Shown: positions 6,904 through 15,219, counted from the first letter of the stretch. The stretch is DNA of 26,238 nt from a virus (IMGVR_UViG_2728369593_000006), one strand, 5' to 3'. Notes: generated by a model not told the origin, from the sequence alone. Numbers and translations are program-made.

Positions 6904-7900
6904 GTGACCGTGAGAGCACTACTGACCCCTGAAATTGCCCCGCGTATGGGGATCGTATTGTTCAGACCAGGTTCAGAGCTGATGCCCCTGTTTATGCAGG
7001 GGCGTGTCCTGCTGGAGCCTGAGCCGGAGCATTATTCATCTTTCGCCAGTGGTGCCGTTCCCGCGGCATCACAACCGCTGGCGGATGATCCTGTCGTTCG
7101 GGCCGTGTTCCGTAATGAGGCAGTGATTCGTCGTGCTGGTGGCGTGGAATGTCTTGAAAGCTGGTTACTTCGTAAAAAAGGCTGCCAGTGGCCTCATTCC
7201 GACTGGCACAGCGAGAACATGACCACAATGCGACACGCGCCGGGCGCAATCCGTCTGTGCTGGCACTGTGATAACCAGCTGCGCGATCAGTTCACGGAAC
7301 GGCTGGAATCAATGGCAACGGATAACTGTACCCGCTGGGTGTTGTCTGTTGTGCGTCGGGATCTCGGTTTTGATGACAGTCACGTTGTGACAATTGCCGG
7401 AACTGTGCTGGTGGCTGATTCGTAATGACCTGGCGGATGCCTTACCGGAAAGTGCAGCCCGTAAGGCACTGAGATTACCAAAGCCTGTTGTGCCGTCTGT
7501 CACCCGGGAAAGTGACCTTGTGCCTTCGGTTCCTGCCACCAGCATCATCCAGGATAAAGCGAAAAAGGTGCTGGCGCTGAAAGTGGATCCGGAGTCGCCG
7601 GAGTCTTTTATGTTACGCCCAAAACGTCGCCGCTGGGTTAATGAAAAGTACACGCGCTGGGTTAAGACACAGCCGTGTGCATGTTGTGGAAAGCCCGCTG
7701 ATGATCCCCACCACCTGATAGGTCACGGTCAGGGTGGAATGGGAACAAAAGCGCATGACCTTTTTGTGTTGCCTTTGTGCAGAAAGCATCACGACGAGCT
7801 GCATGCGGATACCGTGGCATTTGAAGAGAAGTATGGCTCCCAGCTGGAGCTGATATTTCGTTTTATCGATCGTGCGCTGGCAATTGGCGTGCTGGCCTGA
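6904..7900 (+). pseudogene. DUF968/YdfU-like protein with HNH-like C-terminal motif, possibly split by a +1 frameshift near 7418-7426 (alternatively two adjacent genes)
   Basis: ORFs 6904..7425 and 7394..7900 lie in different frames and overlap; combined length (about 340 aa) is what I recall for YdfU-type DUF968 proteins; C-terminal CxxC...HH...H motif. Confidence 0.4.
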
Positions 7901-7917
7901 TTTTGTGGAGAAAGTTG

Positions 7918-8283
7918 ATGCGTGATATTCAAATGGTTCTTGAACATTGGGGGGCATGGGTGGCAAATAATCACGAGGATGTCACTTGGTCGTCTATTGC
8001 TGCAGGATTTAAAGGACTAATCCCTTCAAAAGTAAAATCCCGCCCGCAATGTTGTGACGATGACGCGATGATCATTTGTGGATGCATGGCTCGCCTGAAA
8101 AAGAACAACAGCGATTTGCACGATTTATTAGTGGATTATTATGTAGGTGGTATGACGTTTATGGCGCTTGCCCGTAAACATGGGCGTTCTGATTGCTGGG
8201 TTGGGCGTTTATTGCAAAAGGCTGAAGGTGTAGTTGATGGCATGTTAATGATGTTAGAAATTGAGCTAGAGATGGATCGTTAG
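7918..8283 (+). CDS. Q: Late-gene antiterminator Q (phage 82 / QuuD type)
   Basis: [33 protein letters not shown]...[33 protein letters not shown] closely matches the E. coli DLP12 QuuD sequence as recalled; GTGGAG RBS 8 nt upstream. Confidence 0.8.
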
Positions 8284-8325
8284 AAGACCTCTTATTGAGG
8301 GGGTAATTGAATCAGTTTAATGTGT

Positions 8326-8356
8326 GGGGAGTCGATTTATTCTCCCCATTTTATTT
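8326..8356 (+). terminator. Rho-independent terminator about 45 nt downstream of Q (candidate tR')
   Basis: Stem GGGGAG/CTCCCC (8326-8331 / 8342-8347) followed by ATTTTATTT; U-rich tail is on the plus strand only. Confidence 0.5.
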
Positions 8357-8367
8357 AATTAATTTAC

Positions 8368-8814
8368 TTAAGGTTTTAATTCATCAAGACGTTGTTGGAT
8401 AGTGTTTTTGCTTGCGTTGTCTGTTATAGCCATTTGTTGTACTTGCCCCATTGCCATTTGAGTTTCCATCCACATATCGGCCCACACTTTTGTATCGTTA
8501 TTAACTTGAGCGATAGTAAATTTGACTTTTGATACCGGGGTTGTTGAATAGGCATTGCCGATTAACATTTGTCCAAAAACAGCAGACCCGCCTTCCAGTT
8601 CTTTACCACATATAACACTGCTGTTATCCGCGTTGTAAATTATCAACCCTCTACTATTGCAGTAATTCACAAGGGCATCTTTGACTTTATCTTTTGTCGT
8701 ATTTTGATAAACCCCCTCAGGTTTTCCTGATTGAGTTTTCTTTATCAATGGTACGGAAGAAGTACAACCTGAAATGATAGTTGCGCTAAGTAATAATACA
8801 GTCATTTTATTCAT
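8368..8814 (-). CDS. Lipoprotein of unknown function (moron in the Q-lysis interval)
   Basis: 148 aa; N-terminal signal peptide with lipobox LLSATIISG-C; AT-rich coding sequence; opposite orientation to the flanking phage operons. Confidence 0.6.
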   Translation of the reverse strand: MNKMTVLLLSATIISGCTSSVPLIKKTQSGKPEGVYQNTTKDKVKDALVNYCNSRGLIIYNADNSSVICGKELEGGSAVFGQMLIGNAYSTTPVSKVKFTIAQVNNDTKVWADMWMETQMAMGQVQQMAITDNASKNTIQQRLDELKP

Positions 8815-9084
8815 GTTTCTTATCCATTGTTAAGGGCATACCCACACAATTATTTTTATTGGAGATGAATAATCAACCGTTTACAATCGTAAAAAATCAA
8901 ATATGCTGTTAAGAGTGGTTACTTCGCCACACAACTTAAACCCGCCGCTGAGCGGTTTTTTTGTACCTGTAAACCTGGAGCAGTACAGTAAACACGCTGG
9001 TGGTCGTGAATACTGACTTTTTATCTTGCTGGCTTTTTAGACAAGAGTTATTGGTATGTCATGTTAACCAGAAGGGAAAAAGAC

Positions 9085-9288
9085 ATGCTAAAACAGCAAG
9101 ATATGACAGAAACCGCCGCAGCAGTCCTTCATTTCTTACCTGCTGACAAGTGGGTAACGCCACGCATGATGACGAGAACTACCGGAGTAAGCGAAGCCCG
9201 GTGCCAGTTAATACTGACTCAGTTAGTTCTGGCGGGTCTGGCGAAGGATAACGGCGGGTACGGGAATAAATTCAGACGCTGCCAGTAA
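9085..9288 (+). CDS. Hypothetical small wHTH-like protein (ORF track start 9061; ATG 9085 has the better RBS)
   Basis: 67-75 aa ORF; AAGGGAAA about 7 nt upstream of ATG 9085; no family recognised. Confidence 0.3.
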   Translation: MLKQQDMTETAAAVLHFLPADKWVTPRMMTRTTGVSEARCQLILTQLVLAGLAKDNGGYGNKFRRCQ

Positions 9289-9438
9289 TGGCGGTTTCCT
9301 GCTGTGAAAATGGGCGGCTGGTGGGTGTTGGTAGCACCTGCCAGCCATTCGCTCATGCTTACTGGTCACAAGCGAACCACGGCCCACTGCTTTAGCGCAA
9401 AAGCAGAGTGAGCCTACCAGAGTTACGCTTACAGATCC

Positions 9439-10491
9439 ATGAAAAATACTGTAAAAATAAACAGTGTTGATTTAATCAACGCTGATTGCCTGCATTTTAT
9501 TCAGTCCCTGCCTGATGATTCCATTGACCTGATTGTTACCGATCCGCCGTACTTCAAGGTGAAACCCAACGGCTGGGACAATCAGTGGAAAGGGGACGAA
9601 GATTACCTTAAGTGGCTGGACCACTGTCTGGCCCAGTTCTGGCGGGTGTTAAAACCTGCCGGAAGCCTTTACCTGTTCTGTGGGCATCGCCTGGCATCTG
9701 ATATTGAGATCATGATGCGTGAACGTTTCAACGTGCTTAACCATATCATCTGGGCGAAGCCGTCCGGACGTTGGAATGGGTGTAATAAAGAAAGTCTGCG
9801 CGCATATTTTCCTGCCACAGAGCGCGTTCTGTTTGCTGAACATTACCAGGGGCCATATCGCGGCAAAAGTGACGGCTATGCAGCAAAAGAAAGGGAACTC
9901 AAACAGCACATAATGGCACCGCTGATATCGTATTTCAGGGATGCTCGTGCCGAACTGGGTATAACGGCAAAACAAATTGCCGAAGCCACAGGTAAGAAAA
10001 ATATGGTTTCCCACTGGTTTGGTGCCAGTCAGTGGCAGTTGCCGAATGAGGCTGACTATCGGAAGTTACAGGCACTGTTTTCCCGTATAGCGGCAGAGAA
10101 GTTTCAGGAACAACAACTGGAACAACCACACCACCAGCTGGTGGCATCTTATGATTCACTGAATCGCAAATATTCTGAATTGCTGGATGAGTTTAAATCT
10201 CTCCGGCGCTATTTCTCCGTATCAGTCTCCGTGCCTTATACCGATGTCTGGATGCATAAACCCGTTCAGTTCTACCCGGGTAAACATCCGTGTGAGAAAC
10301 CTGCGGATATGCTCCGGCAAATAATCAATGCCAGTAGTCGACCTGGTGATCTGGTTGCTGATTTTTTTATGGGATCCGGTTCCACAATAAAAGCAGCAAT
10401 GGCGCTGGGGCGTCGGGCCTTAGGTGTTGAGCTTGAGTCAGAGCGGTTTAACCAGACAGTGAAAGAGATAAACGAGCTGGTGGGGAAATAA
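9439..10491 (+). CDS. Orphan DNA methyltransferase (N6-adenine/N4-cytosine family, beta-class motif order)
   Basis: 350 aa; motif IV TDPPYF near the N-terminus and AdoMet-binding motif I DFFMGSGST near the C-terminus; no adjacent restriction endonuclease gene. Confidence 0.8.
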   Translation: MKNTVKINSVDLINADCLHFIQSLPDDSIDLIVTDPPYFKVKPNGWDNQWKGDEDYLKWLDHCLAQFWRVLKPAGSLYLFCGHRLASDIEIMMRERFNVLNHIIWAKPSGRWNGCNKESLRAYFPATERVLFAEHYQGPYRGKSDGYAAKERELKQHIMAPLISYFRDARAELGITAKQIAEATGKKNMVSHWFGASQWQLPNEADYRKLQALFSRIAAEKFQEQQLEQPHHQLVASYDSLNRKYSELLDEFKSLRRYFSVSVSVPYTDVWMHKPVQFYPGKHPCEKPADMLRQIINASSRPGDLVADFFMGSGSTIKAAMALGRRALGVELESERFNQTVKEINELVGK

Positions 10492-10497
10492 TCTGGT

Positions 10498-10522
10498 GGC
10501 CACGTAGGTGGCCTTTTTATTT
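10498..10522 (+). terminator. Rho-independent terminator after the methyltransferase gene
   Basis: Stem GGCCAC/GTGGCC with GTAG loop (10498-10513) followed by TTTTTATTT. Confidence 0.5.
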
Positions 10523-10557
10523 CCATTACACAGCACCCGCATCTGCGAGGTGGGGTT

Positions 10558-10773
10558 ATGAAATCCATGGATAAGTTAACAACGGGTGTCGCCTATGGCA
10601 CCTCAGCAGGTAGTGCCGGGTACTGGTTTTTACAGTTGCTCGATAAAGTCACGCCCTCACAGTGGGCGGCAATAGGTGTGCTGGGTAGTCTGGTATTTGG
10701 CTTGCTGACGTATCTGACAAACCTTTATTTCAAGATTAAAGAAGATAAGCGTAAGGCTGCGAGAGGTGAATAA
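10558..10773 (+). CDS. S: Class II pinholin (phage 21 S21 type)
   Basis: 71 aa; [71 protein letters not shown], near-identical in pattern to S21; dual-start MKSM motif. Confidence 0.8.
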
Positions 10774-11270
10774 TGTCGCCATCATTACGCAAGGCTGTTG
10801 CTGCTGCTATTGGTGGTGGGGCTGTTGCCATAGCGTCTGTGCTCATCACTGGTCCGAGTGGTGACGATGGCCTGGAAGGTGTCAGCTACATACCATACAA
10901 AGATATCGTTGGCGTATGGACTGTATGTCACGGACACACCGGAAAAGACATCATGCTAGGTAAAACGTATACCGAAGCAGAATGCAAAGCCCTCCTGAAT
11001 AAAGACCTTGCCACGGTCGCCAGACAAATTAACCCGTACATCAAAGTCGATATACCGGAAACAACGCGCGGCGCTCTTTACTCGTTCGTCTACAACGTGG
11101 GTGCTGGCAATTTCAGAACATCGACGCTTCTTCGCAAAATAAACCAGGGCGATATCAAAGGCGCATGTGACCAGCTACGTCGCTGGACATACGCTGGCGG
11201 TAAGCAATGGAAAGGCCTGATGACTCGTCGTGAGATTGAGCGTGAAGTCTGTTTGTGGGGGCAACAATGA
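10773..11270 (+). CDS. R: SAR endolysin (phage 21 R21-type lysozyme, GH24)
   Basis: 165 aa; N-terminal signal-anchor-release segment ([18 protein letters not shown]) and lysozyme core; ATG overlaps the holin stop. Confidence 0.8.
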
Positions 11271-11734
11271 GCAGAGTAACCGCGATTATCTCCGCTCTGG
11301 TTATCTGCATCATCGTCTGCCTGTCGTGGGCGGTCAATCATTACCGTGATAACGCCATCGCCTACAAAGAACAGCGTGATAAAAAAGTCAGTGAGCTGAA
11401 GCAGGCGACCGCCACCATCGCTGACATGCAGCAGCGTCAGCGTGATGTTGCTGCGATCGATGCAAAATACACGAAGGAGTTAGCCGATGCGAAAACTGAA
11501 AATGAAACTCTGCGCGCTGATGTTGCCGCTGGTCGTAAGCGCCTGCGGGTCAATGCCAGTTGCTCCGCAGCCGTGCGTGAAGCCACCGGACCCACCAGCA
11601 TGGATAATGCAACCAGCCCCCGACTGGCAGACACCGCTGAACGGGATTATTTCACCCTCAGAGAACGGTTGATGACGATGCAGAAGCAACTGGAAGGGGC
11701 GCAGGAATATATCCGCACCCAGCGCATTAAGTAG
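11267..11734 (+). CDS. Rz: Rz inner-membrane spanin
   Basis: N-terminal transmembrane segment followed by coiled-coil-prone sequence; ATG 11267 overlaps the endolysin stop; Rz1 is embedded in the +1 frame. Confidence 0.7.
11487..11672 (+). CDS. Rz1: Rz1 outer-membrane lipoprotein spanin, embedded within Rz
   Basis: Lipobox LPLVVSA-C followed by a proline-rich mature region, entirely inside Rz in another frame. Confidence 0.65.
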
Positions 11735-12118: not shown

Positions 12119-12386
12119 GTAAGAGCAGGCATTACAGCAGCCCTTCACTGAGGGGCTGCGATAATGTGAGGAATAAAAAAACCGGCAGGGGAAATCCATT
12201 GAAGATTTGCCGGTGGCAAAAGATGGCCATGCTTTTAACCTTAGTAGCAGAGCTACGGAGTTCAACAACGACCGTCGCCGTTATCTTGCTGAAAGGCGTT
12301 TCAATGATTTTCATCAATTTATTCATCAGCAATGGTGATAATCACTCTCATTTTGGCGGGTCCTTCCGGTGGGGTGGCCTGCCACG

Positions 12387-12403
12387 GGGCGGGAGCGTCG
12401 CGG
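12387..12403. other. Lambda-like cos site (cosN cohesive-end sequence), about 180 bp upstream of the terminase small-subunit start
   Basis: GGGCGGGAGCGTCGCGG versus the lambda left end GGGCGGCGACCTCGCGG as recalled (9/12 of the cohesive end plus the identical CGCGG); followed by an AT-rich cosB-like stretch to about 12570. Confidence 0.5.
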
Positions 12404-12582
12404 AAAAAGGCTAGTTTTTACATTTCCATGGCGGCGGCAACATGTTTAGTAATTTATTGATAATTAAAAGTTATTTCTCTTTTCACCTGTACAATATTTT
12501 TTTCTCCCTGTCATTAGACCAGTTTGCAATTAATTGAAATATATAAATAAACCTGATTTTCACCTGCCAGATGGAGTTGCTT

Positions 12583-13110
12583 ATGTCAAATGTGAGCGGG
12601 ATCGGTGATGCTTATTACTGGAGTGTTTTTAAAATCGCCGAGGCCTTTGGGCTTCACCGGGACACAGTAAAAAAACGGCTCCTCGCGGCCAACACTCCTG
12701 TGGCTGCGACTGTCAGGGGGAACCCCGTTTACGCCCTGCAGCATGTCGGGCCAGCTCTGTTTAGTGTGAAGCATGAGGCAGCAGACTCTGTTCATGATCC
12801 ATCCCGTATGGAGCCGAAAGAGAGAAAGGACTGGTACCAGTCTGAAAATGAAAGGATCAAGCTGGAAAAGGAGCAGCGAAAACTCATCCCAGTTGATGAA
12901 GTAGTCATCGTCTATTCGTCCATGAGAAAGTCTGTCGTCCAGGTTCTGGAGACAATTCCGGATGTTCTTGAACGCGATTGCGCCCTGACTCCTCAGGCCG
13001 TCGGCGTTGTACAGCAGGCCATTGATGACCTGCGATACACTCTTCAGGAAAAATCCTACGAGGCTTGTGCTGCTGAATTAATTCCTGATGAGGAAGGAGA
13101 GAGTCTCTAG
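12583..13110 (+). CDS. Terminase small subunit (DNA-binding wHTH N-terminus)
   Basis: First gene downstream of cos, immediately before the large terminase subunit; GGAG RBS before ATG 12583 (ORF track start 12571). Confidence 0.6.
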   Translation: MSNVSGIGDAYYWSVFKIAEAFGLHRDTVKKRLLAANTPVAATVRGNPVYALQHVGPALFSVKHEAADSVHDPSRMEPKERKDWYQSENERIKLEKEQRKLIPVDEVVIVYSSMRKSVVQVLETIPDVLERDCALTPQAVGVVQQAIDDLRYTLQEKSYEACAAELIPDEEGESL

Positions 13111-13118
13111 GAGGAATA

Positions 13119-15219
13119 ATGGGTTTTTCATCAGCCCGAAATTTGGGAAGGGACATATCGGCAGGATTTTCCCCACCACGTCGCATGCCGATTTCGGAGG
13201 CTGTTAAAAAATTCATGCGTGTTCCCAAGGGGGCTGGTAACTCGGTGCCATGGGATCCTGAACTGACACCCTACATCATTGAGCCCATGAACTGCCTGGC
13301 ATCGCGTGAATACGATGCGGTGATTTTTGTTGGTCCTGCGCGAACAGGGAAGACCATTGGTCTGATCGATGGATGGATTGTCTATACCATCGTTTGCGAT
13401 CCTTCGGACATGCTCGTTGTGCAGATGACCGAAGATAAGGCCCGCGAGCATTCTAAAAAGCGCCTCGACAGAACGTTCAGAAGCAGTGCGGCGGTAAAGA
13501 AAAGAATGAGTCCACGTCGTAACGACAATAATGTTCATGATAAGACGTTCAGGGATGGCTCGTTCCTTAAAATTGGTTGGCCCTCGGTCAACATTATGTC
13601 GTCGTCGGATTACCGGTTTGTCGCCTTAACCGATTACGACCGTTTTCCGGAGAATATCGACAGCGAGGGTGATGGTTTCTCCCTGGCCTCAAAACGTACC
13701 ACCACATTTATGTCCGCCGGGATGACTCTGGTGGAGAGCTCGCCGGGACGTGACATCTGCGACAGCAAATGGCGACGTAAGTCGCCTCATGAAGCGCCAC
13801 CGACGACTGGTATTCTTTCCCTTTACAATCGTGGTGACCGCCGCCGCTGGTACTGGCCATGTCCGCACTGTGGTGAGTATTTTCAGCCAGCCATGGATGC
13901 CATGACCGGCTACCGTAATGAACCGGATCCCTTTAAAGCCAGTGAGGCGGCGTATCTACTTTGCCCGCACTGCAGCGGCATTATCACTGCGGAGAAAAAG
14001 CGTGAGCTCAATAGTGCAGGAGTCTGGTTGCGTGAAGGTCAGGTCATTGATCGTAACGGCAACGTTTCCGGTGAACCGCGCCGCTCCCGTATCGCCAGTT
14101 TCTGGATGGAAGGGCCAGCTGCTGCGTATCAGACCTGGGCGCAACTGGTTTACAAATTACTGACTGCAGAACAGGAGTATGAAGCGACAGGAAGCGAAGA
14201 AACACTCAGGGCGGTTATCAATACCGACTGGGGATTACCTTATCTTCCCCGCGCCAGCATGGAGCAACGAAAAAGTGAACTGCTTGAGCAGCGGGCAGAG
14301 CCAGTTCCTTCCCGCAGTGTGCCGGATGGCGTTAATTTCCTTGTGGCGGCAGTGGATGTGCAGGCGGGACGTCATCGCCGTTTTGTGGTTCAGGTAACGG
14401 GCTATGGCAGCCGTGGCGAACGCTGGATTATTGATCGTTACAACATCACGCAGCCATTGCGCGGTGACAGCGACGGGGAGAGCCAGCGAATTGATCCGGC
14501 CAGCTATCCGGAAGACTGGGATGTCCTGCTGACGGATGTTTTTCATAAAAAGCTGGCCGCTGGCCTCCGATCCTTCTCAACAAATGCGACTGATGGCAAT
14601 GGCGGTGGACTCCGGCGGTGAAGACGGGGTCACTGATAATGCCTATAAATTCTGGCGTCGTTGCCGTCGTGATGGCCTTGGTAAACGTATTTACCTGTTT
14701 AAGGGCGACAGCATCCGGCGCGCAAAACTGATCACCCGTACATTCCCTGATAACACCGGACGAACGGGCCGACGGGCGCAGGCCGCAGGTGATGTGCCGC
14801 TCTGGCTTCTTCAGACGGATGCCCTGAAAGACCGGGTGAATAACGCGTTATGGCGTGACTCGCCAGGTCCCGGCTATGTGCATTTCCCTGACTGGCTGGG
14901 GAGCTGGTTTTACGACGAACTGACGTACGAAGAGCGGAGTAGTGACGGGAAATGGAGTAAGCCGGGTCGCGGTGCCAACGAAGCTTTTGACCTGATGGTG
15001 TATGCCGAGGCTCTGGTCATTCTGCATGGATACGAAAAGATCCGCTGGCCGGATGCACCGGAGTGGGCGAGCCGGGAAACCTGGCTGGAGTGTGTCCCGG
15101 ACAGTACCGAACCGTCACCCTCACCGGAACCAGTATCCACGCCTGTTAAAAAACAAAAACGGAAGAAAACAGTAACTGACGATGTTAACCCCTGGCTGAC
15201 TTCCGGAGGATGGTTATGA
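13119..15219 (+). pseudogene. Terminase large subunit (lambda GpA family), interrupted by a +1 frameshift at about 14553-14590
   Basis: Walker A GPARTGKT and the CPHCG...CPHC zinc-finger region in ORF 13119..14621; the remaining C-terminal region (ORF 14536..15219, MAMAVDSGG...) is in the next frame with an 86-bp overlap; combined length about 700 aa. Confidence 0.75.

Follow-up and report, generated by a model that had tools for sequence, protein, structure and literature searches.

What does the virus IMGVR_UViG_2728369593_000006 carry between its antiterminator gene Q and its holin gene, and when would the genes placed there be expressed? The DNA analysed (26,238 nucleotides, hereafter the window) possesses three open reading frames (ORFs) in this interval: a lipoprotein gene on the reverse strand (8368-8814), a small winged-helix ORF (9085-9288, + strand) and a DNA methyltransferase gene (9439-10491, + strand). 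An earlier sequence-only reading had noted these ORFs along with two terminator-like hairpins (8326-8356 and 10498-10522), all of which were found at the same positions by ORF and terminator scans, the hairpins themselves spanning 8326-8345 and 10498-10513 in the scan, with a T-run after each. It had taken them for a single cargo cassette downstream of the late promoter PR' and its terminator tR'. Instead, the interval reads as two unrelated modules, 8284-8879 and 8964-10522, which are parted by PR' and tR' at 8880-8963. We consider it probable that the first is a lipoprotein moron standing before PR', and that the second is late, Q-dependent cargo consisting of the winged-helix gene, an RNA leader and a methyltransferase of the M.EcoGII type, with the leader acting as a second gate. 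The chief results are a leader RNA that appears tied to the M.EcoGII family and a reverse-strand cargo that appears to have been inserted between Q and its promoter. The anatomy of the interval, the family assignments, the linkage among the parts and the covariation of the RNA are direct observations.

The interval is split by a feature unmentioned in the earlier reading, an intrinsic terminator with a promoter just upstream. The antiterminator gene (7903/7918-8283, + strand) encodes a Q of the Q21 family (PF06530, E-value 4e-51), residues 8-89 of which match the Q21 structures 6p18 and 6jnx (E-value 1e-8). From a promoter scan and the comparison of relatives, the PR' region was placed at 8880-8935 (+ strand). 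Here a dyad, TTTACAATCGTAAA (8880-8893), overlaps the -35 hexamer TTTACA and is a candidate Q-binding element; the -10 hexamer is TATGCT (8902-8907), and the initially transcribed region after it (8908-8935) is conserved. The putative tR' is the first intrinsic terminator downstream (8938-8963, + strand; AAACCCGCCGCTGAGCGG and then a run of seven T), where the terminator scan gave a hairpin at 8944-8956; the homologous site is annotated as a rho-independent terminator in phages SfV and Ayreon. We conclude that PR' with its Q-binding element probably lies at about 8880-8914 and tR' at 8938-8963, with reverse-strand cargo between Q and PR'.

For 144 loci oriented on the methyltransferase leader described below, the nearest Q gene was typed. 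Every locus with a small Q21-family Q and a recognisable terminator has a TAnnnT hexamer at a fixed position, followed by TGTTAAGAGTGGTTACTTCGCCACACA, ahead of the terminator. While this unit is constant, the dyad some 15-25 bp upstream of it varies with Q subtype, being TTTACAATCGTAAA in the window, TTTACGTACGTAAA in phage 434, GCGGTCCGC in the cdtI type, GCGTACGC in the 569R4 type and GGAATTCC in phiP27. A further variant, GTTATAAC, belongs to the same series (window compared with loci L002, L005-L007, L010, L064, L094, L110 and L151), and the series looks like a natural set of matched specificities of Q and Q-binding element. Between the Q stop codon and the terminator there are 92 bp in locus L064, which has no insert, as against 660 bp in the window and 837-1751 bp in other loci. 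The 62 bp from 8879 to 8940 are found again in 434, PA-2 and many lambda-like phages; in 434 the PR' element is located downstream of the nmpC/lc porin gene, itself on the reverse strand, and in both 434 and PA-2 it stands about 140 bp upstream of holin gene S. In phages with an unrelated Q of 250 amino acids, homology to the window starts only at about 8939, at the terminator.

The window has the parts of a Q21-type PR'/tR' unit, namely a Q21-family Q, a predicted promoter with a Q-specific upstream element and a predicted intrinsic terminator before the late genes. The promoter with its upstream dyad specific to the Q subtype, the conserved stretch that would be transcribed first and the intrinsic terminator some 50 nt further on agree with the published layout of the Q21 cassette (10.1101/651190). 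As a template holding only -40 to -1 of PR'21 and the pause element still loaded Q21 (10.1101/651190), the Q-binding element would lie upstream of +1. The window and many relatives differ from a Q21-type unit in that reverse-strand cargo, as much as 1.7 kb of it, parts Q from PR'. It should be mentioned that in phage PhiR40_1 a 37-amino-acid "hypothetical protein" annotated in GenBank at 14361-14474 (window ~8903-9016) spans both PR' and tR' and is probably spurious.

Behind tR', the largest gene (9439-10491) encodes a beta-class N6-adenine DNA methyltransferase of 350 amino acids (PF01555, 145.9 bits against a cut-off of 26.7, E-value 2e-42, residues 29-341). The motifs follow the beta-class order, with VTDPPYF at residues 33-39 (DPPY 35-38) and FFMGSGST at 309-316 enclosing a central target-recognition domain. 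The enzyme had been described as an orphan methyltransferase of the beta class with a possible part in anti-restriction; this description holds and the role is plausible. It is no unknown enzyme, being identical to the characterised M.EcoGII at 281 of 349 residues (81%) over its full length with two gaps; the M.EcoGII sequence compared was machine-read from the PMC11551740 supplement, and small errors in it are possible. The adenines that M.EcoGII methylates may stand in any sequence context; the enzyme is prophage-borne, unexpressed in the lysogen and slows growth when expressed, and those who described it proposed a role in shielding phage DNA from restriction (PMC5778455). It also methylates RNA and single-stranded DNA in vitro (PMC5778455), and a review groups M.EcoGII with Mom of phage Mu as lysogen-silent and toxic (PMC12707154). 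The window enzyme resembles M.EcoGII and M.EcoGI of E. coli O104:H4 prophages (Murray et al., 2018, PMC5778455) in size (350 against 349 amino acids), in motif order, in residing on a lambdoid prophage and in having no partner endonuclease. Its presumed lack of sequence specificity is based on the 81% identity, and about 19% of its residues differ from M.EcoGII, the central region included.

The position of the gene would account for M.EcoGII-type silence in the lysogen, since it lies behind tR' and a consensus scan found no promoter-like site at 8964-9084, between tR' and the winged-helix ORF; a position behind tR' without a promoter of its own is consistent with such silence. Inspection of the sequence found no Shine-Dalgarno sequence at the methyltransferase start. 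In the available part of the M.EcoGII description, which records silence and harm and gives no control mechanism, no mention is made of an upstream winged-helix ORF, a leader RNA or a site behind tR' (PMC5778455).

The stretch 9289-9438, which the sequence-only reading had passed over as spacer, is the most unusual feature of the region and holds a structured RNA. This leader (9297-9438, + strand) was recognised by covariation and by the match to a covariance model. Its predicted fold, from RNAalifold and manual inspection, is a long interrupted hairpin made up of helices P1 (9303-9307/9366-9370), P2 (9310-9315/9351-9356), P3 (9316-9321/9341-9346) and P4 (9323-9327/9335-9339), a second hairpin P5-P6 (9381-9393/9400-9414) and a long-range helix P7 (9364-9374/9426-9437), which engages nucleotides -13 to -2 ahead of the methyltransferase ATG. 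P2 and an alternative helix, P2alt (9348-9353/9371-9376), are mutually exclusive. Ahead of the leader, folding of the window sequence gives a hairpin (hairpin A, 9278-9295, + strand; GCTGCC-AGTAAT-GGCGGT followed by a T-rich run) whose loop contains the stop codon of the winged-helix ORF, about 15 nt before P1. Its stem shows compensatory changes across loci (CTGCC/GGCAG, CCTTC/GAAGG and CCTCC/GGAGG).

The gap between the winged-helix ORF and the methyltransferase is 150 nt in the window and 134-152 nt in 34 of 35 loci. There are 86 distinct versions of the leader with a core of 146-152 nt (a leader of about 147 nt including the methyltransferase ATG, plus one codon), and its length and invariant blocks are kept while the winged-helix protein drops to 43-52% identity and the methyltransferase to 58-63% (Providencia, Proteus, Plesiomonas). 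A GATC (Dam site) is invariant before the methyltransferase ATG, 2 nt away (CTGATCYATG, 9433-9441), in all leader versions and forms the 3' strand of P7a. A possible further hairpin, ACTGT-N-ACAGT, was seen in the minimum-free-energy fold at methyltransferase codons 4-11 (9448-9470), and the same arms are present in loci L088, L121 and L150.

Other explanations of this stretch were considered and rejected. A tRNA or tRNA-like element was suggested by the motif GGTAGCAC and an ACCA end, but ARAGORN gave no tRNA or tmRNA. A small ORF (ATGGGCGGC..., 33 codons), annotated in 569R4 as a coding sequence of 35 amino acids, is interrupted by TAG after seven codons in most relatives, such as locus L018. 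Pairing of CUGUGA with UUACAG at the methyltransferase start exists only in the window sequence, relatives having UUACUG. A search of Rfam 15 over 7800-10900 on both strands gave no match at an E-value of 1 or below, and the literature on pR' diversity and on the small RNAs Pas, AgvB and AsxR mentions neither the leader nor the methylase.

With 45 representatives of less than 97% identity, 86.7% and 84.7% of cells pair in the two variants, compared with 27-47% when partners are slid, and covariation scores lie above those of all 500 shuffles. In the alignment of the covariance model, built on the nested helix set and comprising 67 distinct sequences, 88.5% of cells pair against 32-46% with slid partners. 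Pairs changed on both sides number 14, compared with 7.6 +/- 1.4 in shuffles, and standard pair types after the first, added up for all pairs, number 36 against 30.8; none of 500 shuffles was as high in either case. Compensatory changes occur in four of the five pairs of P7b. A mutual information scan was dominated by clade signal, with only the P2alt pair 57/83 standing out as Watson-Crick. The model gives one strong match per locus, on the + strand only (in the window 9297-9444, 159.8 bits, E-value 1e-36), and no match in 434, PA-2, ev066 or the loci which hold only the lipoprotein gene. Together the G-U pairs and the one-strand match point to an RNA that would be read from the + strand.

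The leader is linked to the methyltransferase with few exceptions. In a methyltransferase-anchored search it was found upstream of the gene in 76 of 76 loci, with the winged-helix ORF in 70 (92%); this metagenome sample was drawn from the best 80 methyltransferase matches, all with at least 80% identity, and gives counts of linkage but little new diversity. The leader was met apart from a methyltransferase only in two decayed loci. One of these, L040 (4147-4287), lacks a methyltransferase and retains a leader scoring 108 bits along with a winged-helix ORF fragment; in the other, L109 (~13141-13213), the leader is truncated after P3 and runs into unrelated AT-rich sequence. Eight pattern matches with neither methyltransferase nor winged-helix ORF (L042, L053, L075, L111, L137, L144, L146 and L154) were discarded as chance matches inside coding sequence. 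The leader is a conserved structured RNA, previously undescribed, and a fixed associate of the M.EcoGII family. A divergent leader in L160 (10765-10905, 22.5 bits), where P3-P4 is replaced by the perfect hairpin GACTGTTAAGAG/CTCTTAACAG, lies about 270 nt upstream of a methyltransferase of 60% identity and may be a distant branch useful for covariation. In L114 (IMGVR_UViG_2698536677_000006) two copies of the leader motif lie about 3 kb apart on the same strand, which suggests a duplicated module or two methyltransferase modules.

The third component, the winged-helix ORF (67 amino acids, phrog_331), is taken to start at 9085 and not at 9061, since all homologs keep the start MLKQQDMTET; a good Shine-Dalgarno sequence (GAAGGG) stands before the ORF. 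The AlphaFold2 model of the protein has the topology H1-S-H2-H3-hairpin (predicted local distance difference test score, pLDDT, of 78), and Foldseek gave template modelling (TM) scores of 0.7-0.8 to winged-helix domains of IclR, TrmBL2, Zalpha, ArsR and SelB, at E-values of 4e-3 or above. Pfam scores remained below the curated cut-offs (for the window protein at best 14.3 bits, where the cut-off is 27), with sub-threshold matches across members to TrmB (19 of 23, best E-value 2.5e-4) and DprA_WH (14 of 23, best E-value 1.6e-6). From its predicted topology and these fold matches the protein is probably a winged helix-turn-helix protein, which bears out the first description of the ORF. In a search with one genome per species the methyltransferase was found 140-190 bp downstream of the winged-helix ORF in 28 of 30 loci, one of the exceptions being at a contig end and the other having a gene fragment, so that all 28 informative loci show the pair. 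These loci are from Mangrovibacter, Plesiomonas, Providencia, Proteus, Kluyvera, Salmonella, Klebsiella and others.

The pair had been proposed to be a self-contained epigenetic or anti-restriction module. This is not borne out, there being no promoter-like site ahead of it and the guanine plus cytosine (GC) content of both genes being backbone-like (0.510 for the winged-helix ORF and 0.480 for the methyltransferase, against a window mean of 0.517 +/- 0.043). With no promoter of its own found and a backbone-like composition the pair also falls outside a strict definition of morons, and it is best described as apparent accessory cargo of the late operon and not as an independent unit.

A scheme for the control of the methyltransferase can be proposed from these parts, namely a gene behind tR', a start without a Shine-Dalgarno sequence, a conserved RNA with alternative pairings and an accompanying winged-helix protein. 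In the lysogen, transcripts from PR' would stop at tR' and the toxic methyltransferase would stay silent. After induction, Q-modified RNA polymerase would pass tR', hairpin A and the terminator at 10498, and the enzyme would broadly methylate replicating phage DNA, so that progeny would be shielded from many restriction systems in the next host. As a second layer of safety, P7 of the leader may cover the region upstream of the methyltransferase start codon and so limit or time translation, and the alternative pairings of P1 and P2 versus P2alt and P7 would permit a switch. The winged-helix protein is the best and most economical candidate for opening the leader, which would give it the part that Com plays in the control of mom. 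We infer in this way the timing of expression, the translational control and the role of the winged-helix protein.

The comparison with Mu is one of arrangement. Com of phage Mu (62 amino acids), whose gene precedes mom, binds a hairpin adjoining the structure that blocks mom translation (PMC6483171), and in Mu-like prophages mom has been swapped for non-specific adenine methyltransferases which are still placed behind com (PMC3299994). The com-mom and com-methyltransferase operons (FluMu hin1523, Pnm1 nma1821, hia5) share with the window a small upstream ORF (62 amino acids; 67 here), a structured RNA, which in the window may cover the start region through P7, and a modification enzyme. The Mu-type enzymes are toxic, late and active in broad adenine modification against restriction (PMC6483171, PMC3299994, PMC12707154), properties which the window enzyme would share. 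However, Com is a CCCC zinc finger, whereas the window protein has a predicted winged-helix fold with only two conserved Cys and is not a Com homolog, so that the resemblance is one of analogy and not of family membership. Moreover, the window enzyme is unrelated to Mom and belongs to the beta class, unlike the alpha-class hin1523 and hia5, and its leader of about 150 nt has at least seven helices. We tentatively suggest, as a minority possibility, that the leader represents a new class of cis-regulatory RNA for M.EcoGII-family enzymes with the winged-helix protein as its RNA-binding activator, a lambdoid counterpart of Com/mom made from unrelated parts. A variant reading would have the enzyme methylate its own leader as feedback.

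A number of points weigh against this gated late cargo. The alignment of the covariance model was fitted to the very structure under test, and the covariation owes much to a small number of clades (Providencia/Proteus/Plesiomonas and the phiP27 type), and so represents few independent events. The pairing probability of positions -17 to -3 is 0.66 compared with 0.54 +/- 0.12 for the shuffled leader, 15% of shuffles being as high, and folding energies thus weakly support occlusion of the start region. The winged-helix ORF is absent from six of the 76 loci and from several viral loci (L088, L121, L132 and L150) that keep leader and methyltransferase, and is therefore not strictly needed in cis. 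That the winged-helix protein would bind RNA rather than DNA is a proposal by analogy. The non-specificity of the window enzyme is presumed from identity, and the residues that differ from M.EcoGII include part of the central target-recognition region. Finally, promoter, start site and terminator function are assigned from sequence comparison.

The absence of the winged-helix ORF from these loci also speaks for the alternative that survives best, which is doubtful yet worth serious attention, namely that the leader is gated without the winged-helix protein and that the latter has a separate DNA-binding role. Candidates for such a gate include the methyltransferase binding or modifying its own leader with N6-methyladenine, RNase III acting on the P1-P4 stack and ribosomes terminating at the winged-helix stop codon. 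The activity of M.EcoGII on RNA and single-stranded DNA in vitro (PMC5778455) would suit the first of these, and the stop codon in the loop of hairpin A the last. Against this alternative stands the presence of the winged-helix ORF with the leader in 92% of loci across genera, a co-occurrence which argues for a shared function.

We regard it as unlikely that the spacer is no regulatory RNA, being conserved through recent spread of a DNA block, as a site acting at the DNA level or as a separate small RNA gene. Phage modules are mosaic and often nearly identical, the effective sequence number in the covariance model is low (1.52), the invariant GATC could act on the DNA level and prophages of enterohaemorrhagic E. 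coli are known to have small RNAs near the PR' cargo slot (PMC4104026). However, a conserved regulatory leader better accommodates the retention of length and invariant blocks beside proteins that diverge to 43-63% identity, the excess of pair covariation over shuffled and slid controls, the restriction of methyltransferase-free leaders to the decayed L040 and L109 and the extension of the last helix to 2 nt before the methyltransferase ATG.

Still less probable is a lysogen-expressed epigenetic module, in which a site-specific orphan methylase would reprogramme the host under winged-helix control resembling that of C proteins. The winged-helix fold is typical of transcription factors, relatives are named "TrmB family transcriptional regulator" in RefSeq and regulatory orphan methylases of phages do exist (PMC12707154). 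The pair is nevertheless placed after tR' and no separate promoter was found for it, its nearest characterised relative (81%) is non-specific, lysogen-silent and harmful when expressed, and the intergenic element appears to act as an RNA with G-U pairs on one strand and not as a DNA operator.

The lipoprotein gene (8368-8814, - strand) was earlier placed in the slot that carries stx; it lies upstream of PR' and tR', which stand between it and the winged-helix ORF, and it is therefore outside a slot of that type. Its 148-amino-acid precursor (phrog_3152) has an N-terminus, MNKMTVLLLSATIISGC, with a lipobox that reads ISGC in the window and LSGC, LVGC or LSAC in homologs. The lipobox Cys (Cys17) is invariant in 18 of 18 homologs, C69 is also invariant and C52 nearly so; with a signal peptide ending in such a lipobox the product is a predicted bacterial lipoprotein. 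The sorting rule of E. coli reads the residue after the lipidated Cys, and as no Asp is present at +2 an outer-membrane location is predicted. The family is small (29 clusters, Enterobacterales only), and sequence and profile searches of Pfam, NCBIfam, PADLOC and PDB were all empty. By fold the protein is best matched by KA1, DUF3568/Flpp3 and BamC domains.

A candidate sigma-70 promoter for this gene (8849-8876, - strand; TTGATT-16-AATAAT, matching the consensus at 9 of 12 positions) stands back-to-back with PR'. The terminator-like hairpin after Q (8326-8356, + strand; GGGGAG-N10-CTCCCC followed by ATTTTATTT) adjoins the 3' end of the gene and has its T-run on the + strand only; in cdtI a different, bidirectional hairpin occupies this spot. 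The GC content is 0.361 across 8284-8939, and within the gene 0.376, with 0.329 at third codon positions (GC3). Atypical composition is thus confined to the left part of the interval, where the foreign composition and opposite orientation of the lipoprotein gene stand as described. By virtue of its candidate promoter, its 3' hairpin, its GC content of 0.376 against 0.517 and its variable presence, the gene is a likely moron in the strict definition. It appears to have been horizontally acquired and to have entered the space from Q to PR', where it would not be part of the late transcript. With low confidence, and by analogy, we further infer that the protein is made in the lysogen and exported to the outer membrane to the benefit of host or prophage, perhaps by blocking or masking a receptor or by superinfection exclusion.

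Reverse-strand envelope genes between a Q21-family Q and the PR' element are also represented by the porins lc (PA-2) and nmpC (434, DLP12) and by the lipocalin Blc (ev066), although the window protein, a phrog_3152 lipoprotein without a Pfam domain, is unrelated to these. Bor, Cor, T5 Llp and TraT are small prophage outer-membrane lipoproteins which act in lysogens, and the window protein is like them in its lipobox signal peptide, small size, prophage location and likely promoter of its own, while no sequence or profile similarity to them was detected. A Q-PR' slot with reverse-strand envelope genes (window 8284-8879, and loci L002, L005, L007 and L009), of which cdtI orf53/54 are a further example, can be told apart from the stx slot after tR'.

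Among phage records the whole arrangement was found only in PhiR40_1 and PhiR55_1 (98.8% identity). Some part of the region is matched by 1602 of 5426 complete E. coli genomes, mostly by the winged-helix ORF and methyltransferase alone, and only 162 of these match at least 80% of the interval and hence include the lipoprotein gene. The methyltransferase is carried by about 30% of complete E. coli genomes. Conservation at this position, earlier regarded as evidence that would tell against cargo, is thus present in part: the pair keeps its place in about 30% of these genomes and across the Enterobacterales, and the lipoprotein gene is replaced by other genes in related phages. Upstream of the pair cdtI has two other reverse ORFs (orf53/54), 569R4 two different reverse ORFs, Ayreon and mEp460 one forward ORF, phiP27 a GIY-YIG gene and SfV no extra gene. 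Downstream of it phiP27 has tRNAs and stx2e, and M.EcoGII relatives occur next to stx2c and stx2e. With Blc in ev066 and lc/nmpC in 434 and PA-2 as other examples, the interval from Q to holin is a region of variable cargo, as was first supposed. Homologs of the lipoprotein gene are found in Jejubacter, Enterobacter and Phytobacter at other positions of prophages or mobile elements. A single three-gene moron cassette in the stx slot behind PR'/tR', with late transcripts crossing all of it, is very improbable: a + strand terminator-like hairpin right after Q (8326-8347) can be read as tR', and PR' directly follows Q in lambda and phage 21, but the 42 bp between the Q stop codon and this hairpin hold no acceptable promoter elements, cdtI has only 23 bp from Q to its reverse ORF, the promoter-terminator unit that varies with Q subtype sits at 8880-8963 and the three genes do not travel together (162 genomes with at least 80% of the interval against about 1600 with any part).

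M.EcoGII is widely used in the laboratory, and some 30% of complete E. coli genomes have a relative of it; the two-module layout with a gated late methyltransferase offers a concrete scheme for its control. If it is correct, the leader would add one more RNA family and would provide a second, independently evolved version of the Com/mom logic for toxic anti-restriction enzymes. The gate would also explain how a genome-wide adenine methylase can stay harmless until lysis in the prophages of about one third of E. coli genomes. The map of lambdoid cargo would likewise be refined into a Q-PR' slot for reverse-strand, lysogen-expressed genes and a slot after tR' for late cargo, a distinction that bears on predicting when prophage-borne genes, toxins included, are expressed.

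The second module ends with an intrinsic terminator between methyltransferase and holin (10498-10522, + strand), which had the top score in the terminator scan and whose homologous site is annotated as a terminator in SfV and Ayreon. It is followed by the P21-type holin gene (10558-10773; PF04971), after which come endolysin and Rz. A 61-amino-acid ORF with an N-terminal lipobox lies in another frame inside Rz (11487-11672) and is the expected embedded Rz1 o-spanin gene. The GC content of the window also dips to 0.40 at 600-1000 and to 0.42 at 12200-12600, the latter in the gap between the gene after Rz and an ORF at 12571, and these dips may mark other insertion points.

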